From IMG/VR virus record IMGVR_UViG_3300029258_002856: 64,000 bases of DNA. One strand, given 5' to 3'. Made by a program: the position numbers and the translations under genes. Below, piece by piece: positions 11,184 to 28,708 of this stretch; position 1 is the stretch's first letter, and each line of letters starts with the position of its first letter. The notes beneath the pieces were generated by a model. The model saw only the letters and a program-made list of their open reading frames with translations. It did no database searches and had not been told where the DNA came from. The DNA is from a virus.

Positions 11184-11299
11184 TTTTGCTTTCTCCTCTT
11201 ATTTCCGAGATGTTTCGGCAACTTGGGATAATAGCTCGGACTGCTTGCGCTGTCCAGACCTTTTGAGTACAGTCAGTGGTTAAGACAGGAGGCCTTACT

Positions 11300-12319
11300 A
11301 TGGACGACTTCTTCTCGGACCGAGTGTTCCGAGATTACTACGAAGACGTGGGCAAGCACCCTATCTTAACCGCTGCTGAAGAGAAAGCTCTACTGGTACG
11401 CTATAAAACGTGCCCTCATTGTAAACGACGTCTCCCTCATCGAGTACGTGTGCAGAACTGTCCTCGCTGCGCTACCGCCGCGCCGGAACGTAGCAACGGA
11501 CGCGTGTACGTATGCGAAAGATGTACGCTTCGATACGAAACGCACGTCAGTCCCAAGTACTGTCCGTCATGTGGTGCCGACCGCGATATGGAAGCGCGCA
11601 ACAAATTAATCGTTTCCAATTTGCGTTTCGTGATGACCACGGCACGCAAGATTACTAAGAATCCAATCCACGTCCAACGGCTCGTATCCGCAGGAAATCT
11701 GGGACTCATCATTGCAGTGGATAAGTTCGACCTAAGCAAGAAAACACGTTTCTTGACCTACGCCGCGTGGTGGATACGTAAGGAAATGATGGATGAGATA
11801 CACAACAGTCACCTGATACATATCCCTTCCCATAAGCAGAAAGCACATCGTCGGGCTCAGAAGTACGGAGTGTATGTCTGTAAACATTGTGACCTCCGAC
11901 TTGAGGACCCAGACATGCTCGACGCGAGTCTTAAACACCCATGCACGACGGGTACGCACGATTTCATGCTCGTCGACGAGAGTCCTTCCTTACATTCGTT
12001 TATGACCATCGACAACCTCCCAATTGCCGATGCCCATCAGAATATAGAAGAGACCACCATCGACTCCGACGTAGCGGGACTATTACACGCTGTGCTACAT
12101 CGGATACCCATCCGCGAGCGTGACCGGTTCATCATGATGCAATACTTCGACGTCGCCAAGGGCGAACGTCGCTCCCACAGTAAAAGTCTGCATCAGCTAG
12201 CCGCAATCACGGGCATCACGCCGGAGCGTGTGCGTCAGGTCAAGGAAGATGCCTTGAAATTCTTACGGCTGGAATTGGACCGGAAATGTGTGCGGAGTCT
12301 GTCGGACGTTTGCGCCTAG
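11300..12319 (+). CDS. Sigma70-family RNA polymerase sigma factor with zinc-ribbon insertions
   Basis: AGGAGG before ATG 11300. Region 1.2 YYEDVGKHPILTAAEE; region 2 SNLRFV...AGNLGLIIAVDKFD...RFLTYAAWWIR; region 4 SLHQLAAITGITPERVRQV. Confidence 0.9.
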   Translation: MDDFFSDRVFRDYYEDVGKHPILTAAEEKALLVRYKTCPHCKRRLPHRVRVQNCPRCATAAPERSNGRVYVCERCTLRYETHVSPKYCPSCGADRDMEARNKLIVSNLRFVMTTARKITKNPIHVQRLVSAGNLGLIIAVDKFDLSKKTRFLTYAAWWIRKEMMDEIHNSHLIHIPSHKQKAHRRAQKYGVYVCKHCDLRLEDPDMLDASLKHPCTTGTHDFMLVDESPSLHSFMTIDNLPIADAHQNIEETTIDSDVAGLLHAVLHRIPIRERDRFIMMQYFDVAKGERRSHSKSLHQLAAITGITPERVRQVKEDALKFLRLELDRKCVRSLSDVCA

Positions 12320-16164: not shown

Positions 16165-16444
16165 TCTGCCCCAGGATGCTCCCCATAGAGGGGCTATCGT
16201 CGCTGACCTCGTGAGAGGGGCGAATTCCTAGCTCTTCAGTCTCAGAAGTCTCAATGGTTCGAACTTGTAGGGAATCGGTAGCAGTGGGCTTTGGCGCTAC
16301 CTGTGCCATTTCGCCAACACGCACATTCTTAATGGTGACGTAGAACGGACGTGTCTTGATTTCGATGTCTTCTTCTTTTAATTCGTACCCGAGACCTTTA
16401 CTCAGTAAAGCTAGGAGCTCCTTCTTCTCCAGTTTGATTTCCAT
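16061..16444 (-). CDS. Hypothetical protein
   Basis: GAGGG before the ATG, co-directional, protein-like N-terminus. The 3' end overlaps the next gene by about 100 nt. Confidence 0.55.
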   Translation of the reverse strand: MEIKLEKKELLALLSKGLGYELKEEDIEIKTRPFYVTIKNVRVGEMAQVAPKPTATDSLQVRTIETSETEELGIRPSHEVSDDSPSMGSILGQSEDLARAGVPGVRPLGPTESHEPPPPGTEFGDED

Positions 16445-18494
16445 TGTTCCCTCGTCGCTGCGTAGGCTTGATGAGCCCCGGTCGAGTAACGATGCGACCC
16501 ATCGCAGGGGTTAATATACACCCTTTAGTCCACGGTTGAATACCCTTTTCAAAACATTTTTCGTGTTTATCACAGAAAAGGCAGTTTATATCCTTCGTTA
16601 ACGTTTTTGCGATGTCTTTACGCCGGTCTAAAGCCGCAAGTTGTTGCCGCTCTAAAGACCCGCGTGCCAGCAAACGATACACCATTACCCGTGAGGTCTG
16701 CCCTAGACGGTAGTTACGTCCCCGCGATTGTTCCCAGTCTTCAAGCTCCCAGGTGCGGCTGTAGTATATCGTGTACGCGGCGGCAGTGAGAGTGATAGCG
16801 ATACCCGTGGATATCTGTGCCAGGTAAACGCGACAGTTTTTCTCCTCCTGAAATTCTTTTTTGTAGACGTGAACCTTTCCCGAATTCTTTCCGTCCACTC
16901 GGACGTGTCCCCATTTTTTCTTTCGCAACAGCGCCTGGATGTCGTCGAGTTCGGCCTCGTAAACCGCCCAGACGATGACCTTGTTTCCCTCTTCGCTCAG
17001 GATGTCCGTGAGCAGCTCCTCTAACGCTTTCAGTTTCGGGTTGCTTGGAAACCGGAGGGTCTCTCGCGCGCCCCAGTTCTTCAGCTCGTCTTTCTTGTGA
17101 CAGAGGGGGGTTCCTGGGTGAATCTTGTTGACGACACAATCGTTCAGGGTTTCGCAGTCGTCACAGACGTTCATCTCCTTGGGAGAATAGAGGAAACCAC
17201 TACATATTTGTAAGAGCTTCGTGATGCGGATGGCGCTGTTGTGTAGCTCGAGAGGTTCTGCGTTGTGGCGCTCTATCTGCATATCCGTAATGGCGGTGTT
17301 GTAGGCTTGCATCTGCTCGGAGGACAATTCGAACTTGATATTCTGGTCGAAAATGCCAGGGAGACCTTCGAGTTCTTGTTCACTGGAGACTTCGCGTAAC
17401 CGTCTGTTTAGGACGTGGAGGTTCTTATACCCGATAACTATCTTGTCGTTTCGAGGCGAAACTTCTGTATAAGTCTGCCCGAACGTCTTCCAGTTTTCCG
17501 GGAAGATGTACCGGGCGAGGGCCTTCATCTGGGGGAACATATCCCGAGGGTCGCCGAGAGTGATGGTGCCGGTCAGCCACACTCGACGCGGTAACAGTGT
17601 CGCTAGCTTCAGGACTGCGCGTGTTCTCTTGCTCCGGATGGATTTGAAACGGTGTGACTCGTCCGCAATCAGAAGTTCAATCGGCAAATCACTCAGCCAC
17701 TGGATGTCATTCCCCACGAGGAGGCGTACCTCTTCGTCTATCTCTCTGGTTTTACGCCCCCGTATCCATTCTTGGGCCAGACGAGCTTGAAGTTTGCGGC
17801 TATTTGTACGCCGTAAAGCTTTTTGTAGTTTCGGGGTTGGGTAGAATTTTGCCTTCTCGAAGAGTTCTGCGGCCTCTCGGTAAAGGGTGGGGGTGCCGTA
17901 GCGCGCGGCCACATCGTAGGAGACTATGAAGATGTCTACGTCTGACTGGTCGGCTAGCACATCGAGTTTGGCCTGGGCGGAGGAGCCCAACATCTGAGCG
18001 GTGCTGAGAGTCCCTTCCGTGTGCATCTGTGTCTCTTCTGCCCAGTTCATGATAGCCACGACCGGACAGAGCACGAGGGCTCGAGCCTTGAGGATGTCAA
18101 CGGCGTCGACAGCGACTTTCGTTTTGCCAGTACCCATGGCCCAACGGAGCACCCAGCGGTGATTATAGAGTATCTCCGCTAGCCCTCTTTTTTGGTGTTC
18201 GAGGGTCGAATCCTTGTACGGACCTTTGAACTCGTAGGCTTCAACGAATTCCGTTTTCTCCTCTAAAGTTCCAACGCTCGCAATCCACTCGGCGGCTTTA
18301 GCCGTAAACGTTCCTTCTTTATGGACAACTTCAATATCGTGTAGTACTTTTTCGAGAAACGGTGGGTAAGCCGGAAAGAACCAACAGCGAGTTTTCTTGT
18401 CGTACGTTGCCCCATACACACGGAACCACTCGGCGTCACTTCGCTGCACCCGGAAGAGCGGGATTTTGTTTACGAAAACTGTGTCGATTTCCAC
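16398..18494 (-). CDS. SNF2-family helicase
   Basis: AMGTGKT (motif I), LLIADESH (II), LTGT (III), KVIVW (IV), GIAITLT (V), QSRGRNYRLGQ (VI). Cys-rich insert. GTG start with AGGAG. Confidence 0.88.
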   Translation of the reverse strand: MEIDTVFVNKIPLFRVQRSDAEWFRVYGATYDKKTRCWFFPAYPPFLEKVLHDIEVVHKEGTFTAKAAEWIASVGTLEEKTEFVEAYEFKGPYKDSTLEHQKRGLAEILYNHRWVLRWAMGTGKTKVAVDAVDILKARALVLCPVVAIMNWAEETQMHTEGTLSTAQMLGSSAQAKLDVLADQSDVDIFIVSYDVAARYGTPTLYREAAELFEKAKFYPTPKLQKALRRTNSRKLQARLAQEWIRGRKTREIDEEVRLLVGNDIQWLSDLPIELLIADESHRFKSIRSKRTRAVLKLATLLPRRVWLTGTITLGDPRDMFPQMKALARYIFPENWKTFGQTYTEVSPRNDKIVIGYKNLHVLNRRLREVSSEQELEGLPGIFDQNIKFELSSEQMQAYNTAITDMQIERHNAEPLELHNSAIRITKLLQICSGFLYSPKEMNVCDDCETLNDCVVNKIHPGTPLCHKKDELKNWGARETLRFPSNPKLKALEELLTDILSEEGNKVIVWAVYEAELDDIQALLRKKKWGHVRVDGKNSGKVHVYKKEFQEEKNCRVYLAQISTGIAITLTAAAYTIYYSRTWELEDWEQSRGRNYRLGQTSRVMVYRLLARGSLERQQLAALDRRKDIAKTLTKDINCLFCDKHEKCFEKGIQPWTKGCILTPAMGRIVTRPGLIKPTQRRGNNGNQTGEEGAPSFTE

Positions 18495-18553: not shown

Positions 18554-20290
18554 ATGACGACGGGATACAATATCGTTGACCCTTTCCTTTATGGGAAGCA
18601 GGGCGCGACGCACTCCAACCCGTATTACACATACAGTCAACTCTACAGCCCTAAACGGCTTCGAGATTTGTTCAAGTGGTGTGAATATCTGTTCTACAAC
18701 AGCTCTCACATTTACGCCGCCCTTCGGAAGTTTGGTGAGTATCCCATCACTGAGGTTACCTACGATACGACGAATGACGCCCTAAAGCAAAAGCACAAGG
18801 TACTTCTTCAGAAAGTCATCCGTATCCGCGAACTCCTGATAAAGGCGACCCTCGACAAATTCGTTTATGGAAACGCCTTCATCTCAATGTATCAGCCCTT
18901 TGTGCGGTACCTACGATGCCCGCACTGTTCTACGCTGACGAACATCCAGCACGTCAACTACAAATTTAGCGTTCGGAATTTGCACTTCTCCTACACCTGT
19001 CGGGCATGCGGTACCGCTGTGCGCGCCAAAGAGAAGGATGTCGAAGATCGAAAGTTGATGCTCAGTCGGAATATCAACTTCATCCGGTGGGACCCCAAGA
19101 AGATGGACATCGACCACAATCCGATGACGGGTGAGTCGGTGTACTACTACGAGATTCCGCAGTCGGTCATCCAGCGCGTTAACGACGGGCACAAGACTCT
19201 CATTGATACATTGCCTATGGGCTTCTTGAAAGCCATCAAGAAGAACAAACCATTCCGGTTTGCACCAGATGCGGTCTTCCACATGAAGATAGGTGGCCCT
19301 GCTGGAATCAACCCGCAGTGGGGTTTGCCCCCGCTTATCACGGCGTTGCAGCTCTTCCACTATACGGCGGTGCTTCGTAAAGCAAACGAGGCTATCGCGT
19401 TGGAATACCTTGTACCATTTAGAATCATACATCCCGCACAACAGAGCGGGAACGCGGACCCCGTACAGCAAATCAGTCTCGAGAACTGGCGCGACGAAAT
19501 GGCGCGCAACTTTAAGATGTGGCGTAAAGACCCTCTACACACGATGTGGGCACCGATTCCCGTCGGAATGACCCAAGTAGGGGGTCAGGGACGCGCGTTA
19601 CTCACTCTGGGGGAAGTCCAAGAGGCCGAGAAGAACATCGTTGCCGCTCTTGGCATCCCGATTGAGTTCCTTTACGGGGGTCTCACGAAGAGCGGGATGG
19701 AAGCAACCCTCCGTCTCATTGAAAATCAGCTCGAAACCCACGTCAACGACCTCAAGGACTTGCTCCAGTGGGTGGACGATAGCTGCTCGAAATTCCTTGG
19801 TTGGGAAAAAATACCGGTGAGCCTCACCAAGTTCCGAATGGTGGACGACTACAACAAGCAGGGAATGATGCTTCAGCTCTGGCAACAGGGTAAAGAGGGC
19901 GGTCCTCAAGTCGTTTCGGACACCACAATGGCTGAACTCAATGATATCGACCTCTCGCAAGAAGAGGAACGCATTAAGCAAGAAACGCTCGATGCCTACC
20001 GGCGTCAACGTGAACTCAATGCCGAACTCCAAAAGTTACAGAACAACCTCGCAGAAAAGGCTTTGCAGGAAGCTCAGAGCGGTGGGAACGCCACCAACCA
20101 GCAGCAAATCATCGGGCAGGCGGATATGATTGTACAGGAGCTTGCGCAGATGGACGAAGGAATGCGCAGGAGCAGGCTGCATGAGCTTCAGGTATCTGAC
20201 CAAGTGCTTTACGCCGTAGTGATACAGCGGTGGGAACAATACCAAACAAGCATGACTCAGGAAGCCAAATCCAGCATGAGGATGGGCTAG
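18554..20290 (+). CDS. Portal protein (probable)
   Basis: 578 aa, first gene of the virion block. Portal-like segments: IYAALRK, DKFVYGNAF, WGLPPL, IVAALGIPIEFLYG, SDTT. Coiled-coil C-terminus; CPHC/CRAC insert. Confidence 0.7.
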   Translation: MTTGYNIVDPFLYGKQGATHSNPYYTYSQLYSPKRLRDLFKWCEYLFYNSSHIYAALRKFGEYPITEVTYDTTNDALKQKHKVLLQKVIRIRELLIKATLDKFVYGNAFISMYQPFVRYLRCPHCSTLTNIQHVNYKFSVRNLHFSYTCRACGTAVRAKEKDVEDRKLMLSRNINFIRWDPKKMDIDHNPMTGESVYYYEIPQSVIQRVNDGHKTLIDTLPMGFLKAIKKNKPFRFAPDAVFHMKIGGPAGINPQWGLPPLITALQLFHYTAVLRKANEAIALEYLVPFRIIHPAQQSGNADPVQQISLENWRDEMARNFKMWRKDPLHTMWAPIPVGMTQVGGQGRALLTLGEVQEAEKNIVAALGIPIEFLYGGLTKSGMEATLRLIENQLETHVNDLKDLLQWVDDSCSKFLGWEKIPVSLTKFRMVDDYNKQGMMLQLWQQGKEGGPQVVSDTTMAELNDIDLSQEEERIKQETLDAYRRQRELNAELQKLQNNLAEKALQEAQSGGNATNQQQIIGQADMIVQELAQMDEGMRRSRLHELQVSDQVLYAVVIQRWEQYQTSMTQEAKSSMRMG

Positions 20291-21059: not shown

Positions 21060-24000
21060 ATGCCCGAACTTACGCCCATTCTGGTGGACCCAGAGACCCG
21101 GCGCGACATGATTCGTGTCAAGGTCTTAGAGGGGTTGAAAGAGTCGTTTCCCCTCAAGGCCCGGAACCGCACTATCGAAGTCGATAACCTCGAAGTCGAT
21201 ACGAAAGAATTCTCATCGACAGACCAGAAGAATGCTCTCTTGCGGGGGGACTCCCTCTTCGAGCGCGTGAAAGGGACGGTTCGTCTCCGCGACAACAAGG
21301 GGAAGGTACTGAGCGAGGCATCGAACTTTACGCTAGCTCGCGTCCCATGGTTCACCCCACGCCACACCCTCATCGTAGGCGGCAACGAGTACTCCATTTC
21401 CAACATGGTGCGTCCGAAGCCCGGCGTGTACGCACGAAAGCGTGCCAATGGGATTCTGGAAGCGAACTTCAACGTCGTGGGCGGCGCGAACTTCAACGTG
21501 AGTATGGACCCCGAAAAGGGTGAACCGCAACTCGAGTACGGCGCGACGAAGGTACCCCTTTACCCCGTATTGCGGAGGGCCGGGGTCAGCCACGAGCGTA
21601 TCTCGAAAGCGTGGGGGAAGCAGCTGGCCGAAGCGAACTTCAAGAAGCTGTGGAAAAACTCGGGACGCACTATCGACAAGCTCTACGGGAAAGTCATTCC
21701 CGAGTACCGGCGCACTGCCGGTGCGGATACCGAGGCGAAGACGCGGGAAATATTTGCGCGTTACGCCGAAGCGAAGATGGACCCCGACGTCAACCGTCAG
21801 ACCCTCGGCAAGGGATACCGGGAAGTAACCCCCGACAGCCTGTTAGACGCCTCGGGGAAAGTCTTGCGCATCTTCAAGAACGCGGACGAGATTGACGACC
21901 GGGATAACCTGGACTTCAAGTCCTTCCACTCCGTCGATGATTTCTTCAAAGAGCGTATCAAACTGGACGCACGAGAGATTGCGCGGAAGGCAGCAATCAA
22001 GTCCGAGTCGACTCCGGACGTGAAGCGTATCATCCCCCCTGGTCCGTTTACATCTGGCCTCGTGAAGTTCATCAATAGCTCCCAGCTTGCGTCAGTTCCT
22101 ACGCAGACGAATCCCATGGAGCTCATTGACTCCGCGGTGCGCGTCACTTCCCTCGGGGAGGGTGGCATCTCGAGTGAGCGTGCGATTCCCATGGAAGCAC
22201 GACAGGTACATGTCACCCAGATGGGAGCGTTGGACCCTATACGCACTCCTGAGTCTTTCCGGGCCGGGATCGATGTCCGCGCCGCGATGATGGCAAAGCG
22301 CGATGCGCGTGGAAACATCTACGTGCCCGTGCTGGACGCGAAAACGCGCCGGGGTAAGTACATCCGCGCAGGGGATTTGCAACGCTCGGTCGTCGCTTTT
22401 CCGGGACAACAGTTGAGGGGACAAGTAGAAGCCCTTGATAACGGTGAAATCAAACGCCTTGCAGCGTCGCGGGTTCAGTACCAGATTCCACATGCTTCGG
22501 CACTCTATAGCCCCGCGACAAACCTGGTGCCGTTCCTCGAATCAGCACAAGGTAACCGGGCCATCATGGGTTCGAAGATGCAGGTTCAGGCCCTCTCTCT
22601 GGTGGGCCGAGAAGCTCCCATGGTCCAGGTCAAGTCGCAGACGGGGCCTACCTTCGAGCGCATCATGGGTGGGGTCATTAACCCAGTCTCCCCGGTGTCT
22701 GGGGTGGTCAAGAAAATCGACAAGGACTACATCTACGTCCAACCGGACGGCGAGAAGACCGGAGCCAAGGGCAACAAGTATGTAAAGATTCCGTATGAAA
22801 CCAACTTTCCTCTCGCAGCCAAAACGTACCTTGACCACAAACTTGGAGTACAGAAAGGTGACAAGGTTTCTGCGGGTCAGCGCTTGGGCGAGTCCAACTT
22901 CACGGATAACGGGGTCCTGGCGCTGGGCAAGAATCTGCGCGTAGGCTTCATGGCTTATGACGGGGCGAACTCCAACGATGCCGTAGTCGTCAGTGAGGGC
23001 GGCGCGAAAAAGCTCACGTCCGAGCGCATGTACAAAATCGTGGTCCCTCGAGACCCGGACTTGACATTCAGCCGGGACAAGCACCGCACTTACTATGGAC
23101 ACGGATATACCAAGGACCAATACAAGCCTATCGATAAAGAAGGCGTGATTGCGCCGGGTACGCAGATTAATCCAGGTGACCCCCTCGTCATGGGACTTCG
23201 CAAGACACAGCTCACCGCGGATGACGTACTTCTTGGACGGCTGCACAAGTCACTGGCGCGTCCGTTCCGTGAGAACGTACATGATTGGGACCATGACCAC
23301 CCTGGCGAAGTCGTGGACGTCGTGAAGACGCCCAAGCGAATCGCCATTACTGTCAAGACACGAGAACCTGCTGGCATCGGAGACAAGGTTGCTGGGCGCT
23401 ACGGCAATAAAGGGGTCATCTCGCAAATCGTTCCCGACGACCAGATGGTGCGAGACGAGAAGGATAGGCCTATCGACATCCTGATGACTCCCGCCGGGGT
23501 GGTATCTCGTATCAACCCGAGTCAGATTATCGAGACTGCCGTGGGGAAGGTCGCGGAGAAGACCGGAAAGCCGATTGCCGTAGAGAACTTCTCTGGGCGC
23601 AACAACGTTCAATGGGCCAAGGATTTACTCAAGAAACACGGACTCAAAGACAAGGAAACGGTGTACGACCCGCGTACCGGGCGCAAGATTCCCGGGGTGC
23701 TTGTTGGGCGGCAATATATCATGAAGCTCTTCAAGTCCACGGACACCAACTACTCAGCACGGGGCATCGAGAATTACGACGTAAACCAGCAACCAGCTAA
23801 GGGGGGTACTCAGAGCGCCAAGGTGCTGGGTCGTATGGAGTTCGACGCGCTCCTCTCCCATGGAGCACGGAACGTCTTACGAGAAGCCGCAACTCTGAAG
23901 AGCCAAAAGAATGACGAGTGGTGGCGCAACATGCAGCTCGGATACCCTACGCCACCTCCAAAGACCACTTTCGCTACTGACAAGTTCCTTACGATGCTTA

Positions 24001-25412
24001 CCGGGGCCGGAGTGCGCGTCGACCGGGAGAAGAACCAGCTTGCACTTGCCCCTCTCACGGACGCGGACACCTTGAAGCTCTCCTCAGGAGAAATCAAGGA
24101 CGCCAAGTTGGTGCGTGCCAAGGACTTGAAGCCCGAGCGTGGCGGACTCTTCGACCCCGCAGTTACCGGGGGCGTTCGCGGAGGAAAATGGTCCCACGTC
24201 GCTTTAGCGGAGCCGGTGGTCAACCCCGTATTCCGTGACCCTGTTCGACGTCTCCTGGGGATGACTAACTCCCAACTAGACCAGGCTATCCGGGAGAAGG
24301 GTGCGCGGCACATCAAGCGCGAACTCGGAAAGCTGGACCTGGATACCAGGGAAAAAGAACTCTACAAATCTCTCCGGGGACGTAAAGGTTCTGCGCTGGA
24401 TAACGATGTCAAGCAGCTCAAATATATCAAGGCTCTCAAGAAGCAGGGCCTCACTCCAGGTGACGCCTACGTCATTTCCAAAGTGCCAGTGGTGCCCCCA
24501 GTAGTGCGCCCAATCCTTCCCGGTAAAGGCGGCCAGGAACTCATCTACGGGGACATCAACCCTCTCTACCGCGACCTCGTGTACTTGAACAACCAGTTCA
24601 AAGATGTCAAGCAGTCCAAGCTGCTGCCCGACGAAGAGCAGCGTTTACGGCCTGCGTTGCAACAAGCAGTCGGGGCAGTTTACGGGGTAAATGACCCTAT
24701 CACTGCCAAGTCCAAAGCGCGGGGGCACAAGGGGTTCCTCACATATATCTCCGGTAAGGGAAGTCCCAAGTTCGGGTACTTCCACTCTAAACTCATGCGC
24801 CGTACACAGGACGTATCTGGCCGCGGCACCATTGTTCCCGATGTAACGCTCGGCATGGATGAAGTGGGCCTCCCTGAAGATATGCTGTGGTCCATGTACG
24901 GGAAATTCACCACCAAACGTCTGGTGGAGAAGGGTTACCAACCTCTTCAGGCCCAGCAGATGATTCAGGAGAAACATCCGGCTGCGCGAGAGGCGATGCT
25001 GCGAGAGGCCAAAGATAGGCCGGTGATGATTAACCGGGCTCCTACTCTTCACCGCTACAACATGATTGGGGCGTACGCCAGACCGATTCCGGGCAAGACC
25101 ATTCGGGTCAATCCGTTCCTTGAGAAAGGAATGAACGCGGACTACGACGGCGATACGATGATGGTTCATGTGCCGGTGCAGTCCAAAGCTGTTGACGATG
25201 TGAAGAAGATGACGCTCTCCAACTTACTCTTCGGAGACAAGTCCCGGGATGAGCTCATGGTCTTCCCGCAGCACGAAGCCATCATGGGTATCGCACATGC
25301 ATCTGAGCAGGATTCCGGAGGCGTAGTTAAAAAATTTAAGACTCGGGGTGAAGCGATGAAGGCGTACCATGAAGGTAAAATTGGATTAGGGACGCGAGTG
25401 AAAATAGGTTAG
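21060..25412 (+). CDS. rpoB-rpoC: Multisubunit RNA polymerase: beta subunit fused to the N-terminal half of beta-prime
   Basis: Beta motifs: GNRAIMGSKMQVQA, GDKVAGRYGNKGVIS, DILMTPAGVVSRINPSQ, YIMKL, QQPAKGG, GRMEFDALLSHGA. Beta-prime motifs: GGLFDP, WSHVALAEPV, VPVVPPVVRP, NRAPTLHR and catalytic NADYDGD. Confidence 0.95.
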   Translation: MPELTPILVDPETRRDMIRVKVLEGLKESFPLKARNRTIEVDNLEVDTKEFSSTDQKNALLRGDSLFERVKGTVRLRDNKGKVLSEASNFTLARVPWFTPRHTLIVGGNEYSISNMVRPKPGVYARKRANGILEANFNVVGGANFNVSMDPEKGEPQLEYGATKVPLYPVLRRAGVSHERISKAWGKQLAEANFKKLWKNSGRTIDKLYGKVIPEYRRTAGADTEAKTREIFARYAEAKMDPDVNRQTLGKGYREVTPDSLLDASGKVLRIFKNADEIDDRDNLDFKSFHSVDDFFKERIKLDAREIARKAAIKSESTPDVKRIIPPGPFTSGLVKFINSSQLASVPTQTNPMELIDSAVRVTSLGEGGISSERAIPMEARQVHVTQMGALDPIRTPESFRAGIDVRAAMMAKRDARGNIYVPVLDAKTRRGKYIRAGDLQRSVVAFPGQQLRGQVEALDNGEIKRLAASRVQYQIPHASALYSPATNLVPFLESAQGNRAIMGSKMQVQALSLVGREAPMVQVKSQTGPTFERIMGGVINPVSPVSGVVKKIDKDYIYVQPDGEKTGAKGNKYVKIPYETNFPLAAKTYLDHKLGVQKGDKVSAGQRLGESNFTDNGVLALGKNLRVGFMAYDGANSNDAVVVSEGGAKKLTSERMYKIVVPRDPDLTFSRDKHRTYYGHGYTKDQYKPIDKEGVIAPGTQINPGDPLVMGLRKTQLTADDVLLGRLHKSLARPFRENVHDWDHDHPGEVVDVVKTPKRIAITVKTREPAGIGDKVAGRYGNKGVISQIVPDDQMVRDEKDRPIDILMTPAGVVSRINPSQIIETAVGKVAEKTGKPIAVENFSGRNNVQWAKDLLKKHGLKDKETVYDPRTGRKIPGVLVGRQYIMKLFKSTDTNYSARGIENYDVNQQPAKGGTQSAKVLGRMEFDALLSHGARNVLREAATLKSQKNDEWWRNMQLGYPTPPPKTTFATDKFLTMLTGAGVRVDREKNQLALAPLTDADTLKLSSGEIKDAKLVRAKDLKPERGGLFDPAVTGGVRGGKWSHVALAEPVVNPVFRDPVRRLLGMTNSQLDQAIREKGARHIKRELGKLDLDTREKELYKSLRGRKGSALDNDVKQLKYIKALKKQGLTPGDAYVISKVPVVPPVVRPILPGKGGQELIYGDINPLYRDLVYLNNQFKDVKQSKLLPDEEQRLRPALQQAVGAVYGVNDPITAKSKARGHKGFLTYISGKGSPKFGYFHSKLMRRTQDVSGRGTIVPDVTLGMDEVGLPEDMLWSMYGKFTTKRLVEKGYQPLQAQQMIQEKHPAAREAMLREAKDRPVMINRAPTLHRYNMIGAYARPIPGKTIRVNPFLEKGMNADYDGDTMMVHVPVQSKAVDDVKKMTLSNLLFGDKSRDELMVFPQHEAIMGIAHASEQDSGGVVKKFKTRGEAMKAYHEGKIGLGTRVKIG

Positions 25413-26909
25413 ATGCCTTACGCCTCACCAGCACAACGCGCCGCAGTCTGGGCCAAACGCAATGCGCAAGCAGTCCTGACTTCGGGAAACCCTGTCACCA
25501 AGCAGGAAGTGCACGATTACTACTCTAACCCGGTCATTAAGCAGCGTGTCTTGGCAGCCCTGGCAAACCGGGACCTTTTGGCAATCCAGTCAAGAAGCCC
25601 GGATGAGCAAATCGTCAGGCGCTACCGCAAGAAGAATGAGCCCATTCGTGTTGAGAACCCCGAGGACCTCGACTGGTATTCCTCTCGACGCTACACCGAG
25701 TTCCATCCTACGGTCGGGGAGAAGACGGATGAGGTCTGGGTGGATATCGACCCGGGCAAAAACAAGAATACCGAGGACACCAAGGGTCCTACAAAATTTG
25801 TCTATGACCTCCTACGCACCATCCCCGCAGTCAAAGCCGTTGAGCTGGCGTTTTCTGGTGGGCGGGGATTTCATGTGCGTGGAAAACTAGATAAGCCTCG
25901 ACCGACCAATGAAGCCCGTGGAATGCTCCAGGAGTATCTGAAACAGCTCCCTGAACGGCATACGGAACTCACGCTCAAGACGCCGAGGCCAGATGAGATT
26001 CGGTTGGATGTCTCTACCTTGCACCCAAAAGGCTCTATCCGGGCTCCGTATTCTCTCAACGCAGAGACGGGTCTCGTAGCAGTACCGCTCGTTCCATCTC
26101 AGCTCGAGAAGTTCAACCCGCAGAAAGATGCGACACCACAAACGGTGTTGGGCAAGACCGAGTTCGCTCCCGGTATCCCTCAAGAGCGAAAAACATACCC
26201 CCTCCCCGATTTCAAGCGACCGAAAACTTGGACTCTCGCAATCCAAGAACACGATGCGCAACGGGCCGGGAAGCATTGGGACCTTCGCCTCGTCGACCCT
26301 CGAACAACGCATGCCCACTCCTGGGCAGTGCCAAAGGCGCAGTTCCCGCAAGGCAATAGCCCGCTTCTGGCGGTACAGACTCCGACACATACGGCGAGGT
26401 ACGCTCTCACCTTCGGGGAACGCAAACCCAAGGAGATTCGGAAGGGGTATGGAAAGGGCGTCGTTCAAATTTTGCACAAGGAACCTGTAAAGGTCTTGTC
26501 GTCTTCGCCCGATAAAATTAAATTTGAGAGAGACGTGGACGGAAATCCGGAGAGGTACATGCTGTTCAAGTCAAAAGAAAATTCATGGTTGATGCGCCGA
26601 ATCAAAGAAGCGGGGCGTGCAGCTATGCTCAAGAAGTTGGGCGTCGACAAGAGTAAATTCGTGGGCAAGAAACCCTCTAACACCGAGCTGGAAACCCCAA
26701 TGGATGTCGAGGATGAGGGGCTCCCGGCAGGACAGCTTGCTCGTGCCCTCTCGGATATACCGACGGCTGCGGGGCGAGAGAACCGTGATGCTCAAGGCAC
26801 TGATGATGTGGAGGGACGCCTCAACCGCACGACGACTTGGACTGAGCCTGACCACATCCCGATTGACTACGCTCAGGGTCCGTCGCCGGTTATGCCGGGG
26901 AAATTCTAA
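25413..26909 (+). CDS. ligD: LigD-like protein: primase-polymerase (PolDom) plus 3'-phosphoesterase domain, no ligase domain
   Basis: AEP motifs EFHPT, WVDIDPG, FSGGRGFHV, RLDVS...APYSL...VAVPL. PE motifs IQEHDAQRAGKHWDLRL, SWAVPK, LAVQTPTH...Y, GYGKGVV. No KxDG ligase motif. Confidence 0.85.
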   Translation: MPYASPAQRAAVWAKRNAQAVLTSGNPVTKQEVHDYYSNPVIKQRVLAALANRDLLAIQSRSPDEQIVRRYRKKNEPIRVENPEDLDWYSSRRYTEFHPTVGEKTDEVWVDIDPGKNKNTEDTKGPTKFVYDLLRTIPAVKAVELAFSGGRGFHVRGKLDKPRPTNEARGMLQEYLKQLPERHTELTLKTPRPDEIRLDVSTLHPKGSIRAPYSLNAETGLVAVPLVPSQLEKFNPQKDATPQTVLGKTEFAPGIPQERKTYPLPDFKRPKTWTLAIQEHDAQRAGKHWDLRLVDPRTTHAHSWAVPKAQFPQGNSPLLAVQTPTHTARYALTFGERKPKEIRKGYGKGVVQILHKEPVKVLSSSPDKIKFERDVDGNPERYMLFKSKENSWLMRRIKEAGRAAMLKKLGVDKSKFVGKKPSNTELETPMDVEDEGLPAGQLARALSDIPTAAGRENRDAQGTDDVEGRLNRTTTWTEPDHIPIDYAQGPSPVMPGKF

Positions 26910-28708
26910 TGGCTGAAGGTCAACCGTTCGGGCGCTGGCTCTTGAATACCCAGTTGCCTTCTGGGTTCAAGGTCAACTCCCCCGTGGGAAAGAAGCGCCT
27001 CAACCAAATGATGAATGACCTGGCGCGCAAGGACCCTACGCAATACACCACGACTATTGCAGGCCTTAAACGTCTAGGCGATGAGCTTGCGACGCAGGAA
27101 GGCCTCTCCATCGGGCTGGATGACATCGAGCCTGAATACCGGAAACGGGATGCGCAGATGCGTCCCTTCCGTCAGAAGTTTCAGGCGGCACGTACAACCG
27201 CACAGAAGCGCCAGATACTGGAGCAGCTCCACGGAAAAATTACTGATGCCGCCATGAAGCACCGCGGGAGTCTCACGCAGCAAGTACAGAGCGGTGCTCG
27301 CGGTTCTCCCACTCAGTACATGAAGATTGTCGGTAGCCCGGTATACGCTCGGGATGCCAATGGAAAAGTTACTCCTTGGCTCATCCCACGTTCCTACAGT
27401 GAAGGGTTATCGGCTGCTGACTACTGGGCTGCGGGCAACGAAGCTATCTCGGATACCATCAAGTCGAGCACTGCGGTGTCCGAGCCCGGAGAGCTGTCCA
27501 AGATTCTCATTAACAACATGAACGATATCGTGGTGACCGAACAGGATTGCGGAACGGTCAATGGTATCCTCATGGACCCCAAAAACCCCGATGTTCAAGA
27601 CCGTTATCTGGCTCGCAGTGAAGGGGGAGTGCGGAAAGACACCCTCATCAGTCCACAGGTGCAAGCCCGACTGGCCAAGAGCAAGAAGAAAATCCTGGTG
27701 CGTTCGCCGATGACTTGTGAGGCCGGTGATGGGGTCTGCCAGAAGTGCCAGGGTCTCAATGAGCGCGGGAACCTTCACACAGTAGGCACCAATGTTGGCA
27801 TCCGAGCAGCCCAGGCCATGGCGGAACCGCTCACCCAGTTCGCCCTCAATGCGAAGCATGGTGTTCGTACGGCCAAGAGCGACCGCTTGCAAGTTCACGG
27901 CATGCAGGGCTTTCGCCAGATGACAGAATCACCTCGGCAGTTCATGAACAAGGCGACCCTGGCAGGGGAAGAAGGGAAGGTCACGAAGATTGAGAAGGCC
28001 CCGCAAGGAGGACATTTCGTCTACGTCGGCAGCACCAAACATTACGTGACTCCCAACATCAACGTTGTGGCCAAGGTGGGACAGAAGGTCGAACGCGGAG
28101 ACGCGCTGAGCGGTGGGATACCCAAGCCAGATGAGGTGGTAGCCTTCAAAGGTTTGGGAGCTGGACGTCGATATATGGTCGATACGTTGAAGGAACTCTA
28201 CAAGAACCAAGGACGTAATCTCGACCAACGACACTTCGAGCTGTTGGCCAAAGGCGAACTCAATCACGTACGTATCGTGGATGACCCAGGTAGGAACTTC
28301 ATTCCCGGCGATATTGTAGATTACAATCACTTCCGTTCGATTTTACGGGGTAATACGAAGACTCTTCCATTGACGCAAGCGCGCGGGGAGACCCTCGGGA
28401 AAGAGCACCTCCACTTCTCCGCCGGGACTCGTGTGACTCCTTCGGTGGAGCGGGCACTCCACAAAGAGAAAATCAAGGATGTCATCATTGCACCCCGGGC
28501 TCCTGAGGTTGAGTTTGTGATGAAGCCCGCTACTAGAGCCCCGCTTCTTAACCCAGATTGGATGGCTCGTTTGGCGCACCGGAACCTGAAGACAACGCTT
28601 CAACAAGCTGCGCACTTTGGTGATGTTACGAATGTCCACGGAACAAATCCCATCCCGGCCTATGTTTTTGGCGTAGAATTTGGGCAGGGAGAAGAGGGAC
28701 GATACTGA
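26909..28708 (+). CDS. rpoC: RNA polymerase beta-prime, C-terminal half
   Basis: SIGLDDI, SGARGS, SYSEGLS, bridge helix ending VTEQDCG, RSPMTCE...VCQKCQG zinc site, trigger loop VGIRAAQAMAEPLTQFAL, RHFELL. Confidence 0.93.
   Translation: MAEGQPFGRWLLNTQLPSGFKVNSPVGKKRLNQMMNDLARKDPTQYTTTIAGLKRLGDELATQEGLSIGLDDIEPEYRKRDAQMRPFRQKFQAARTTAQKRQILEQLHGKITDAAMKHRGSLTQQVQSGARGSPTQYMKIVGSPVYARDANGKVTPWLIPRSYSEGLSAADYWAAGNEAISDTIKSSTAVSEPGELSKILINNMNDIVVTEQDCGTVNGILMDPKNPDVQDRYLARSEGGVRKDTLISPQVQARLAKSKKKILVRSPMTCEAGDGVCQKCQGLNERGNLHTVGTNVGIRAAQAMAEPLTQFALNAKHGVRTAKSDRLQVHGMQGFRQMTESPRQFMNKATLAGEEGKVTKIEKAPQGGHFVYVGSTKHYVTPNINVVAKVGQKVERGDALSGGIPKPDEVVAFKGLGAGRRYMVDTLKELYKNQGRNLDQRHFELLAKGELNHVRIVDDPGRNFIPGDIVDYNHFRSILRGNTKTLPLTQARGETLGKEHLHFSAGTRVTPSVERALHKEKIKDVIIAPRAPEVEFVMKPATRAPLLNPDWMARLAHRNLKTTLQQAAHFGDVTNVHGTNPIPAYVFGVEFGQGEEGRY

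Follow-up and report, generated by a model that had tools for sequence, protein, structure and literature searches.

Gene content and anatomy of the RNA polymerase locus

The locus analyzed here encodes the multisubunit RNA polymerase (RNAP) of a virus and occupies positions 21060-28708 of a 64,000-nucleotide stretch, hereafter called the window. The window corresponds, on the reverse strand, to bases 18993-82992 of the IMG/VR virus record IMGVR_UViG_3300029258_002856, a single contig of 179,063 bp that is rated 100% complete. The locus is filled without gaps by three abutting plus-strand open reading frames (ORFs), P0001, P0002, and P0003, of which the first encodes β fused to the N-terminal part of β′ and the third encodes the remainder of β′. 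None of the three ORFs is interrupted, and their coupling is tight. The ATG of P0002 comes immediately after the stop codon of P0001 (TAG-ATG at 25410-25415), and P0002 and P0003 overlap in the sequence TAATG (26907-26911). An earlier sequence-only reading of this DNA had pictured two genes here and had overlooked P0002, which lies between the two RNAP genes. A megablast search of the 7.6-kb locus against 50,697 phage records gave zero matches, i.e., no near-identical phage.

P0001 (21060-25412) has 1450 residues and contains Pfam domains of β followed by those of the N-terminal part of β′ in one frame, as expected from the earlier observation that β runs without a stop into β′ motifs up to NADYDGD. 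The β part matches Rpb2_3 (residues 348-411), Rpb2_6 (residues 592-916, E 1.5e-45), and Rpb2_7 (residues 923-950) and carries the motif GRYGNKG at residue 779, and the β′ part matches Rpb1_1 and Rpb1_2. The anatomy of the fusion was derived from an alignment of P0001 with RpoB and RpoC of Salmonella and Staphylococcus. The β part is complete and continuous over residues 1-992. The final residue of Salmonella RpoB aligns with residue 992, and β′ sequence begins with LALAPL at residue 994, so the two subunits are joined without a linker. In the same alignment ~25 N-terminal residues of β′ are absent, and the clamp zinc ribbon (Cys-70, Cys-72, Cys-85, and Cys-88 in Escherichia coli) is deleted, leaving a 32-column gap after residue 1041. 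There is not a single cysteine among the 1450 residues of P0001; in the sequence-only reading, too, the zinc-binding cysteine set of the clamp was not recognizable.

A phmmer search against the Protein Data Bank (PDB) matched residues 1078-1449 to E. coli β′ 178-550; P0001 carries the first third of β′. The catalytic loop NADYDGD (residues 1359-1365) keeps all three aspartates, with tyrosine replacing the phenylalanine of NADFDGD, and is unchanged across 10 relatives. The protein was correctly described as ending shortly after this motif, but the distance is 85 residues and not ~70. The features of the locus and of its surroundings are collected in Table 1.

Table 1. Coordinates of the RNAP genes and neighboring features in the window
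Feature	Position	Strand	Basis or content
Sigma-70 family factor, syntenic counterpart of Arash gp196	11276..12319	+	Sigma70_r2, r4
Portal gene homolog	18554..20290	+	tblastn to Arash gp204 portal, 29% identity
P0001, β module, residues 1-992	21060..24035	+	Pfam Rpb2_3, Rpb2_6, Rpb2_7; Salmonella RpoB alignment
P0001, β′ N-terminal module, residues 993-1450	24036..25412	+	Clamp without zinc ribbon, clamp helices, catalytic double-psi barrel; Rpb1_1, Rpb1_2
NADYDGD codons, within the β′ module of P0001	25134-25154	+	
P0001 stop codon TAG	25410-25412	+	
P0002, ligase-less LigD-like primase-polymerase and 3′-phosphoesterase, outside the RNAP fold	25413..26909	+	PF21686, PF13298
P0003, β′ C-terminal subunit, 599 residues	26909..28708	+	Rpb1_5, AlphaFold model, structural alignment
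Parts of P0003			Rim helices, bridge helix, trigger loop without SI3, second zinc site, C-terminal part of the clamp

The C-terminal β′ chain and the position of the break

The N terminus of P0003 is MAEGQPFGRW. The gene for the remainder of β′ thus begins at the PFGR segment, as had been read from the sequence, but it is the third gene of the locus and not the second. P0003 matches Pfam Rpb1_5, and an AlphaFold model was obtained with a predicted local distance difference test (pLDDT) score of 89. The model was compared with C-terminal halves of β′ and gave VIA-align Z scores of 30-34 over ~500-535 aligned residues, covering residues 568-1374 of the E. coli protein, 556-1174 of the Staphylococcus aureus protein, and 7-1228 of Synechococcus β′2. 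On this basis the bridge helix, the trigger loop, and the C-terminal half of β′ are present, whereas the insert SI3 is absent. P0003 contains exactly four cysteine residues (Cys-214, Cys-270, Cys-277, and Cys-280), all of them at the second zinc site of β′.

The end of P0001 aligns with residues 550-551 of E. coli and Salmonella β′, and in the model-based alignment residue 1 of P0003 corresponds to E. coli residue 568, S. aureus residue 556, and Mycobacterium tuberculosis residues 661-662. The break therefore corresponds to E. coli β′ 551/568 and is situated in a short loop at the protein surface, with conserved region D before it and region E after it. The cyanobacterial β′ is also split between these regions, and published accounts place that junction “before region E” without giving a residue number (PMC10895346 among them). 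No cyanobacterial chain was present among the 60 PDB sequence search matches listed, and the two breaks were compared by structural alignment instead. The first residue of P0003 to align with residue 7 of Synechococcus 7942 β′2, and with residue 1 of the Synechocystis chain, is residue 18, which places the phage break 11-17 residues, or one helix, upstream of the cyanobacterial one according to the model. The helix QPFGRWLLNTQLP (E. coli TTVGRAILWMIVP) is on the C-terminal chain in the phage, whereas cyanobacterial β′2 starts only past that helix. The suggestion of the sequence-only reading that the phage split lies slightly upstream of the cyanobacterial one is supported by this result.

Distribution of the layout

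P0001 matches 821 protein clusters, and all 120 clusters listed combine Rpb2 and Rpb1 domains in one chain. Contigs with P0001-like fusions reach ~196 kb. Relatives were found on 263 IMG/VR contigs, of which 80 loci with 41-75% identity were examined. In all 80 the β::β′-N protein was recovered as one match over residues 1-1450 or as two pieces around an intein. In each of the 63 loci that extend far enough, β′-C is a separate gene downstream on the same strand whose match begins at query residue 1-11, at a distance of 0.57-5.7 kb from the fusion gene. In most of the examined loci the RNAP gene is preceded by a portal gene, irrespective of whether β′ is split or unbroken. The same layout is present in Salmonella phage Arash (OQ632216), with gp206 of 1525 residues and gp216 of 606 residues, and in Vibrio phage D69, with proteins of 1527 and 609 residues. 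The window locus has the features common to the Arash-like set, namely an upstream portal gene, a fusion protein of ~1450-1530 residues, and a β′-C of ~600 residues encoded downstream of the fusion gene on its strand.

Thus, a very large lineage, which includes the cultured phages Arash, D69, D148, and D181, has the fused and split layout as its standard arrangement. Literature searches found no description of this layout in phages. It is not covered in a review of jumbo phage RNAPs (PMC7598289) or in a 2026 jumbo phage review, and the Arash paper names the two proteins simply β and β′ and mentions neither fusion nor split (PMC10585845). The sequence-only reading had allowed that the arrangement might already be documented as standard for its lineage. 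It is standard, but no paper that documents it was found. The layout is real and lineage-wide, and it is apparently undescribed in print, while the window is an ordinary member of the lineage with the LigD-like gene between the RNAP genes as its specific feature.

The RNAP gene is a hotspot for selfish elements. Many homologs of both chains are interrupted by inteins (Intein_splicing, LAGLIDADG_2/3) and reach 1780-2876 residues (e.g., P0004, P0053, P0124, and P0214). In D181 (locus L172, OZ196140, 3483-8997) an insert of ~950 bp with a homing endonuclease gene divides the fusion gene into ORFs of 514 and 1006 residues, and apparently the same has happened in D148; these phages illustrate how additional cuts come about. 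A fusion subclade of ~57% identity (P0088-P0122) has an InPase-like domain inserted in β just before Rpb2_6, for example at residues 593-707 of P0090 (E 8e-28) and 719-817 of P0104 (E 3e-52), the latter also matching Pyrophosphatase; the domain is absent from P0001 of the window. Should this domain prove active, an RNA polymerase with its own pyrophosphatase would be noteworthy. Among relatives of P0003, P0125 has a C-terminal GNAT acetyltransferase domain (residues 613-720), and P0244, P0251, and P0254 have C-terminal extensions of 400-800 residues with no Pfam match.

The gene between the two RNAP genes

P0002 (498 residues) matches the LigD primase-polymerase domain (PF21686 LigD_Prim-Pol, residues 69-248, E 5.8e-16) and the LigD N-terminal phosphoesterase domain (PF13298 LigD_N, residues 278-353, E 9.6e-8), with the motifs DIDP at residue 111, GGRGFH at 149, and HWDLRL at 288. 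The Pfam search found no ligase domain in it. Like P0001, it contains no cysteine. A P0002-type gene occupies this position in ~24 relatives at ≥60% identity and is not found there in more distant phages of the split clade, in which the slot holds different, mostly uncharacterized genes. The space between the RNAP genes has become a variable slot, which is filled by the LigD-like primase-polymerase/phosphoesterase gene in the subclade of the window only. Matches to the 3′-phosphoesterase part of P0002 were also observed within a few kb of unbroken RNAP fusion genes, downstream of them in loci L102, L104, L112, L134, and L138 and upstream in L125 and L133, which makes this domain a recurrent neighbor of the polymerase.

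To see whether a mobile endonuclease could have caused the split, ten representative slot ORFs of relatives were examined. They contained no homing endonuclease or intein domain; one was ferritin-like, and nine had no Pfam match. A mobile-element origin of the split may be suggested only by analogy with the D181 insert and from the many inteins of the homologs.

Absent subunits, sigma factors, and neighboring genes

A six-frame search of the complete 179,063-bp genome with the profiles of α (PF01000, PF01193) and ω (PF01192) gave no match at E ≤ 1. As a positive control, the α and ω searches matched in 14 of 14 control genomes. The lack of both subunits, noted before for the window, thus extends to the entire genome, which contains only one RNAP set.

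The sigma gene upstream of the RNAP locus (Sigma70_r2 E 8e-13, r4 E 1e-4) is the sole Sigma70_r2 match in the genome. Its best Arash match is gp196, annotated as a sigma factor. A tblastn search against all phages gave weak generic matches only, and orthology was assigned from targeted searches of the Arash record. A second sigma-like gene, an ortholog of Arash gp10 (39% identity, E 4e-29), lies outside the window at G000:C1:106676-107143 on the minus strand (locus L180). Since the sigma-docking clamp helices are kept in P0001 and two sigma-like genes are present, promoter recognition probably proceeds via the sigma-70-type factors of the phage itself. Also in this region, an SNF2-family helicase gene (16398-18494, minus strand; SNF2-rel_dom E 2e-16 and Helicase_C) lies 5′ of the portal gene, in the position of the Arash helicases gp197c/gp198c.

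Unsplit relatives and the order of fusion and fission

An exhaustive search with P0003 yielded 5103 relatives. Among the best 150 representatives, 126 were free-standing β′-C proteins and 21 were unbroken β::β′ chains of 2004-2090 residues, longer where inteins are present. Such unbroken chains of ~2050 residues occur on at least 550 IMG/VR contigs. Of 80 full-fusion loci examined, 79 have a single frame of 1990-2170 residues (longer with an intein), usually with a homologous portal gene upstream. The full fusions share with P0001 both the β/β′ junction and the deletion of the zinc ribbon.

Three trees of concatenated β and β′ were calculated, one with FastTree (51 rows) and two with IQ-TREE under LG+G4 (31 and 52 rows). 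Two bacteria served as the root, and YerA41 was an extra outgroup in all three, joined by Carin-5 in the 52-row tree. The fused phage enzymes form one clade with support of 100. The split forms, including the window, Arash, and D69, also form one clade (support 99-100), and in all three trees this clade falls within a grade formed by the full fusions. On these trees the break in β′ arose once. Because the split clade is nested in the full-fusion grade, an order in which fusion came first and was followed by a single later fission is favored, but it is not proven. The fused and resplit enzyme proposed in the sequence-only reading agrees well with the fusion without a linker, the unsplit relatives, and the nested split clade, whereas the polarity of the change is not proven. 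The difference in break position from cyanobacteria, together with the unsplit state of the nearest relatives, likewise supports the suggestion in that reading that the phage split arose independently.

Some results count against the fused-first order. An approximately unbiased (AU) test did not reject monophyly of the full fusions (p = 0.225), the backbone supports are only 88-92, and the trees were built with LG+G4 or FastTree. In addition, ~45 residues around the break site (at the alignment position of window residues ~1425-1460) are missing from L157 and L165, the sister pair of full fusions nearest to the split clade. This deletion may be the scar of a secondary rejoining or an independent loop deletion. 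The split state could be the older one, with the ~2050-residue chains formed later by joining of two genes, once or several times. We consider this unlikely. With monophyly of the full fusions left standing by the AU test, a root between the two layouts is conceivable, and L157 and L165 look as if a deletion had taken out the intergenic region and the gene ends. However, all three trees rooted on bacteria show the full fusions as a grade with the split clade inside it, so several independent rejoinings would be needed, and the other full fusions keep the whole loop (...VRVAG-KNTTAGR...) with no scar.

Probable virion packaging and likely function

Proteomic data are available for the Arash virion. 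The fusion protein gp206 gave the most spectra of all proteins (3516) with 100% coverage, above the major capsid protein, and gp216 gave the fifth highest number (1210) with 89% coverage; the sigma factor gp10 and the helicase gp217 were also detected (PMC10585845). As both RNAP proteins dominate the Arash virion proteome, the enzyme of the window is, by analogy, likely to be a packaged, sigma-dependent polymerase without α. It would probably be injected and transcribe early genes without the host polymerase.

Several points weigh on the other side. The Arash authors allow that abundant enzymes may contaminate the particle preparation (PMC10585845), the relative from which packaging is extrapolated is a single one at 36% identity, and gp196, the counterpart of the window sigma, is not in the Arash virion table. 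The absence of α and ω rests on Pfam profiles, and a very diverged assembly factor could exist. The enzyme could be an ordinary intracellular RNAP for middle or late genes that stays out of the virion; its location among head genes and its high level in Arash particles would be incidental. Highly expressed enzymes may, as the Arash authors note, persist in purified particles (PMC10585845), and with a single RNAP set in the genome, late genes must be transcribed by this enzyme as well. This explanation is nevertheless improbable. The spectra of gp206 exceed those of every other Arash virion protein, the major capsid protein included (PMC10585845), the RNAP gene lies directly 3′ of the portal gene in most examined loci, and the genome retains an ortholog of gp10, the sigma factor that was detected in the virion.

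The reading that best joins these results, to which we assign a probability of about 0.72, is that the layout is the normal one of a large, mostly uncultured group of tailed phages of ~170-200 kb. Their RNAP would have a two-chain core without α and ω that is assembled through a tether, works with its own sigma factors, is packaged in the virion, and descends by a single break from a one-chain ancestor. In this enzyme chain 1 comprises all of β and the first third of β′. Because it joins β head-to-tail with the front of β′, both catalytic double-psi barrels, together with the Mg-binding NADYDGD loop, lie on one polypeptide. Chain 2 supplies the rest of β′, with the bridge helix, the trigger loop, and the second zinc site. 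To our knowledge, all cellular multisubunit RNA polymerases assemble on an α-like dimer. In the phage enzyme the covalent tether between β and β′ most likely substitutes for the α dimer in assembly, and the absence of α and ω is accompanied by deletion of the clamp zinc ribbon and of lineage-specific inserts. The break arose once, most likely from a single-chain β::β′ ancestor. In this reading the anatomy of the enzyme, its distribution, the one-time origin of the split, and the position of the break are shown by the data, whereas packaging in the virion, dependence on sigma, the function of the tether, and the precedence of fusion over fission are inferred.

A further-reaching proposal, which we put forward only tentatively and hold to be possible but not probable, is that this is the smallest natural sigma-dependent RNAP of the bacterial type, with a two-chain core (one-chain in the sister phages) that works without α, ω, and the clamp zinc ribbon, is delivered from the virion with the DNA, and has a break that is itself functional. 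If so, the break may allow an enzyme of ~230 kDa to be packaged or ejected in two pieces. Alternatively, it may create an operon slot for cargo whose synthesis is coordinated with that of the polymerase and which acts alongside it, in this case a primase-polymerase/3′-phosphoesterase. The occurrence of one-chain, two-chain, and further-cut versions in one phage group is a natural experiment on the sites at which a polymerase can be broken, and also on the ways in which an essential gene is remodeled by gene fission, inteins, and homing endonucleases. At present these genes are annotated just as β or as hypothetical protein. With Arash, which grows on Salmonella Typhimurium, a cultured member is at hand in which such questions are directly testable.

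Comparison with known systems

The closest cultured relatives, Arash, D69, D148, and D181, share the β::β′-N fusion, the separate β′-C, the upstream portal gene, NADYDGD, and the absence of the zinc ribbon. The Arash proteins match those of the window over the full length at 36% identity, and both Arash sigma factors, the syntenic gp196 and gp10, have counterparts in the window genome. The differences lie in the space between the RNAP genes, which contains nine genes in Arash, several of them on the other strand, two small genes in D69, and the single LigD-like gene in the window. The single-chain sister phages (e.g., L087-L166), with genomes of up to ~199 kb, have the same junction, zinc ribbon deletion, and portal synteny and match at 31-37% identity over the full length. 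They differ in the unbroken β′ and in that most have NADFDGD and not NADYDGD.

In-frame joining of the β C terminus to the β′ N terminus is also known from the rpoBC fusions of Helicobacter and Wolbachia and from engineered β::β′ tethers in E. coli, all of which retain full-length β′, α2, ω, and the zinc ribbon. In contrast to the rpoBC fusions of Helicobacter and Wolbachia, the phage chain stops at E. coli β′ 551, the rest of the subunit is encoded by a gene 1.5 kb downstream, and α and ω are absent. With the RpoC1 (γ)/RpoC2 split of cyanobacteria and plastids the phage enzyme shares a surface-exposed break after the catalytic barrel and before region E. It differs in the position of this break, in the absence of SI3, in that the N-terminal piece is fused to β and is not a free γ, and in that its nearest relatives are unsplit.

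Inheritance of the break from a cyanobacterial or plastid rpoC1/rpoC2 donor, or by descent together with the split of phiKZ and AR9, would fit two observations: each of the breaks falls past the catalytic barrel, in the stretch from region D to region E (PMC7598289; PMC10895346), and the best structural match of P0003 is cyanobacterial β′2, although this match is tied (Z 33.7 versus 33.4). It is very improbable, because the phage chain starts 11-17 residues earlier and includes the helix QPFGRWLLNTQLP, SI3 is lacking, the nearest relatives are unsplit, and the phage has a sigma-70 homolog and an unsplit β, unlike phiKZ and AR9. An assembly or sequencing artefact, or a decaying pseudogene, for which nothing speaks beyond the general possibility in a metagenome assembly, is excluded for practical purposes by the same break residue in all examined relatives that reach it and in complete isolate genomes, by the recovery of two separate Arash proteins with 100% and 89% coverage (PMC10585845), and by the three intact, tightly coupled ORFs.

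The sequence-only reading had pointed to the lineage of Weinheimer and Aylward, whose tabulated genes are separate and unsplit. Their mReC phages have a β of 900-1100 residues and a β′ of 1000-1400 residues, and fusion is mentioned only for crAssphage (PMC7481178). The window locus, being fused and split, has a different gene layout. The mReC phages, YerA41, and Carin-5 are tailed phages with a compact, bacterial-like β and β′, and in the present trees YerA41 and Carin-5 branch outside the two bacteria used here. Cobetia phage Carin-5 (L173, 4038-10863) has the gene order sigma, β′ (1083 residues, intact), and β (927 residues). In Yersinia phage YerA41 (L168, 4841-10905) β′ precedes β and is cut into 556 and 518 residues. 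The YerA41 break, which falls close to E. coli residue 636 where the alignment is weak, appears to be an independent, recent fission in a different phage group; the zinc ribbon is retained in this β′.

The RNAPs of phiKZ and AR9 are likewise phage-encoded and lack α and ω, their β′ is divided behind the double-psi barrel, and one of the enzyme sets is packaged in the virion; their β is also cut into pieces, there is no fusion of β and β′, they are too diverged for ordinary alignment, and they have no recognizable sigma-70 homologs (PMC7598289). In the window, in contrast, β is continuous and readily aligned with bacterial subunits, and sigma-70 family genes are present. A natural, sigma-70-partnered, and easily aligned enzyme without α and ω would be a tractable minimal model of RNAP assembly and initiation, and such a model would resemble the E. 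coli enzyme much more closely than the phiKZ and AR9 polymerases do.

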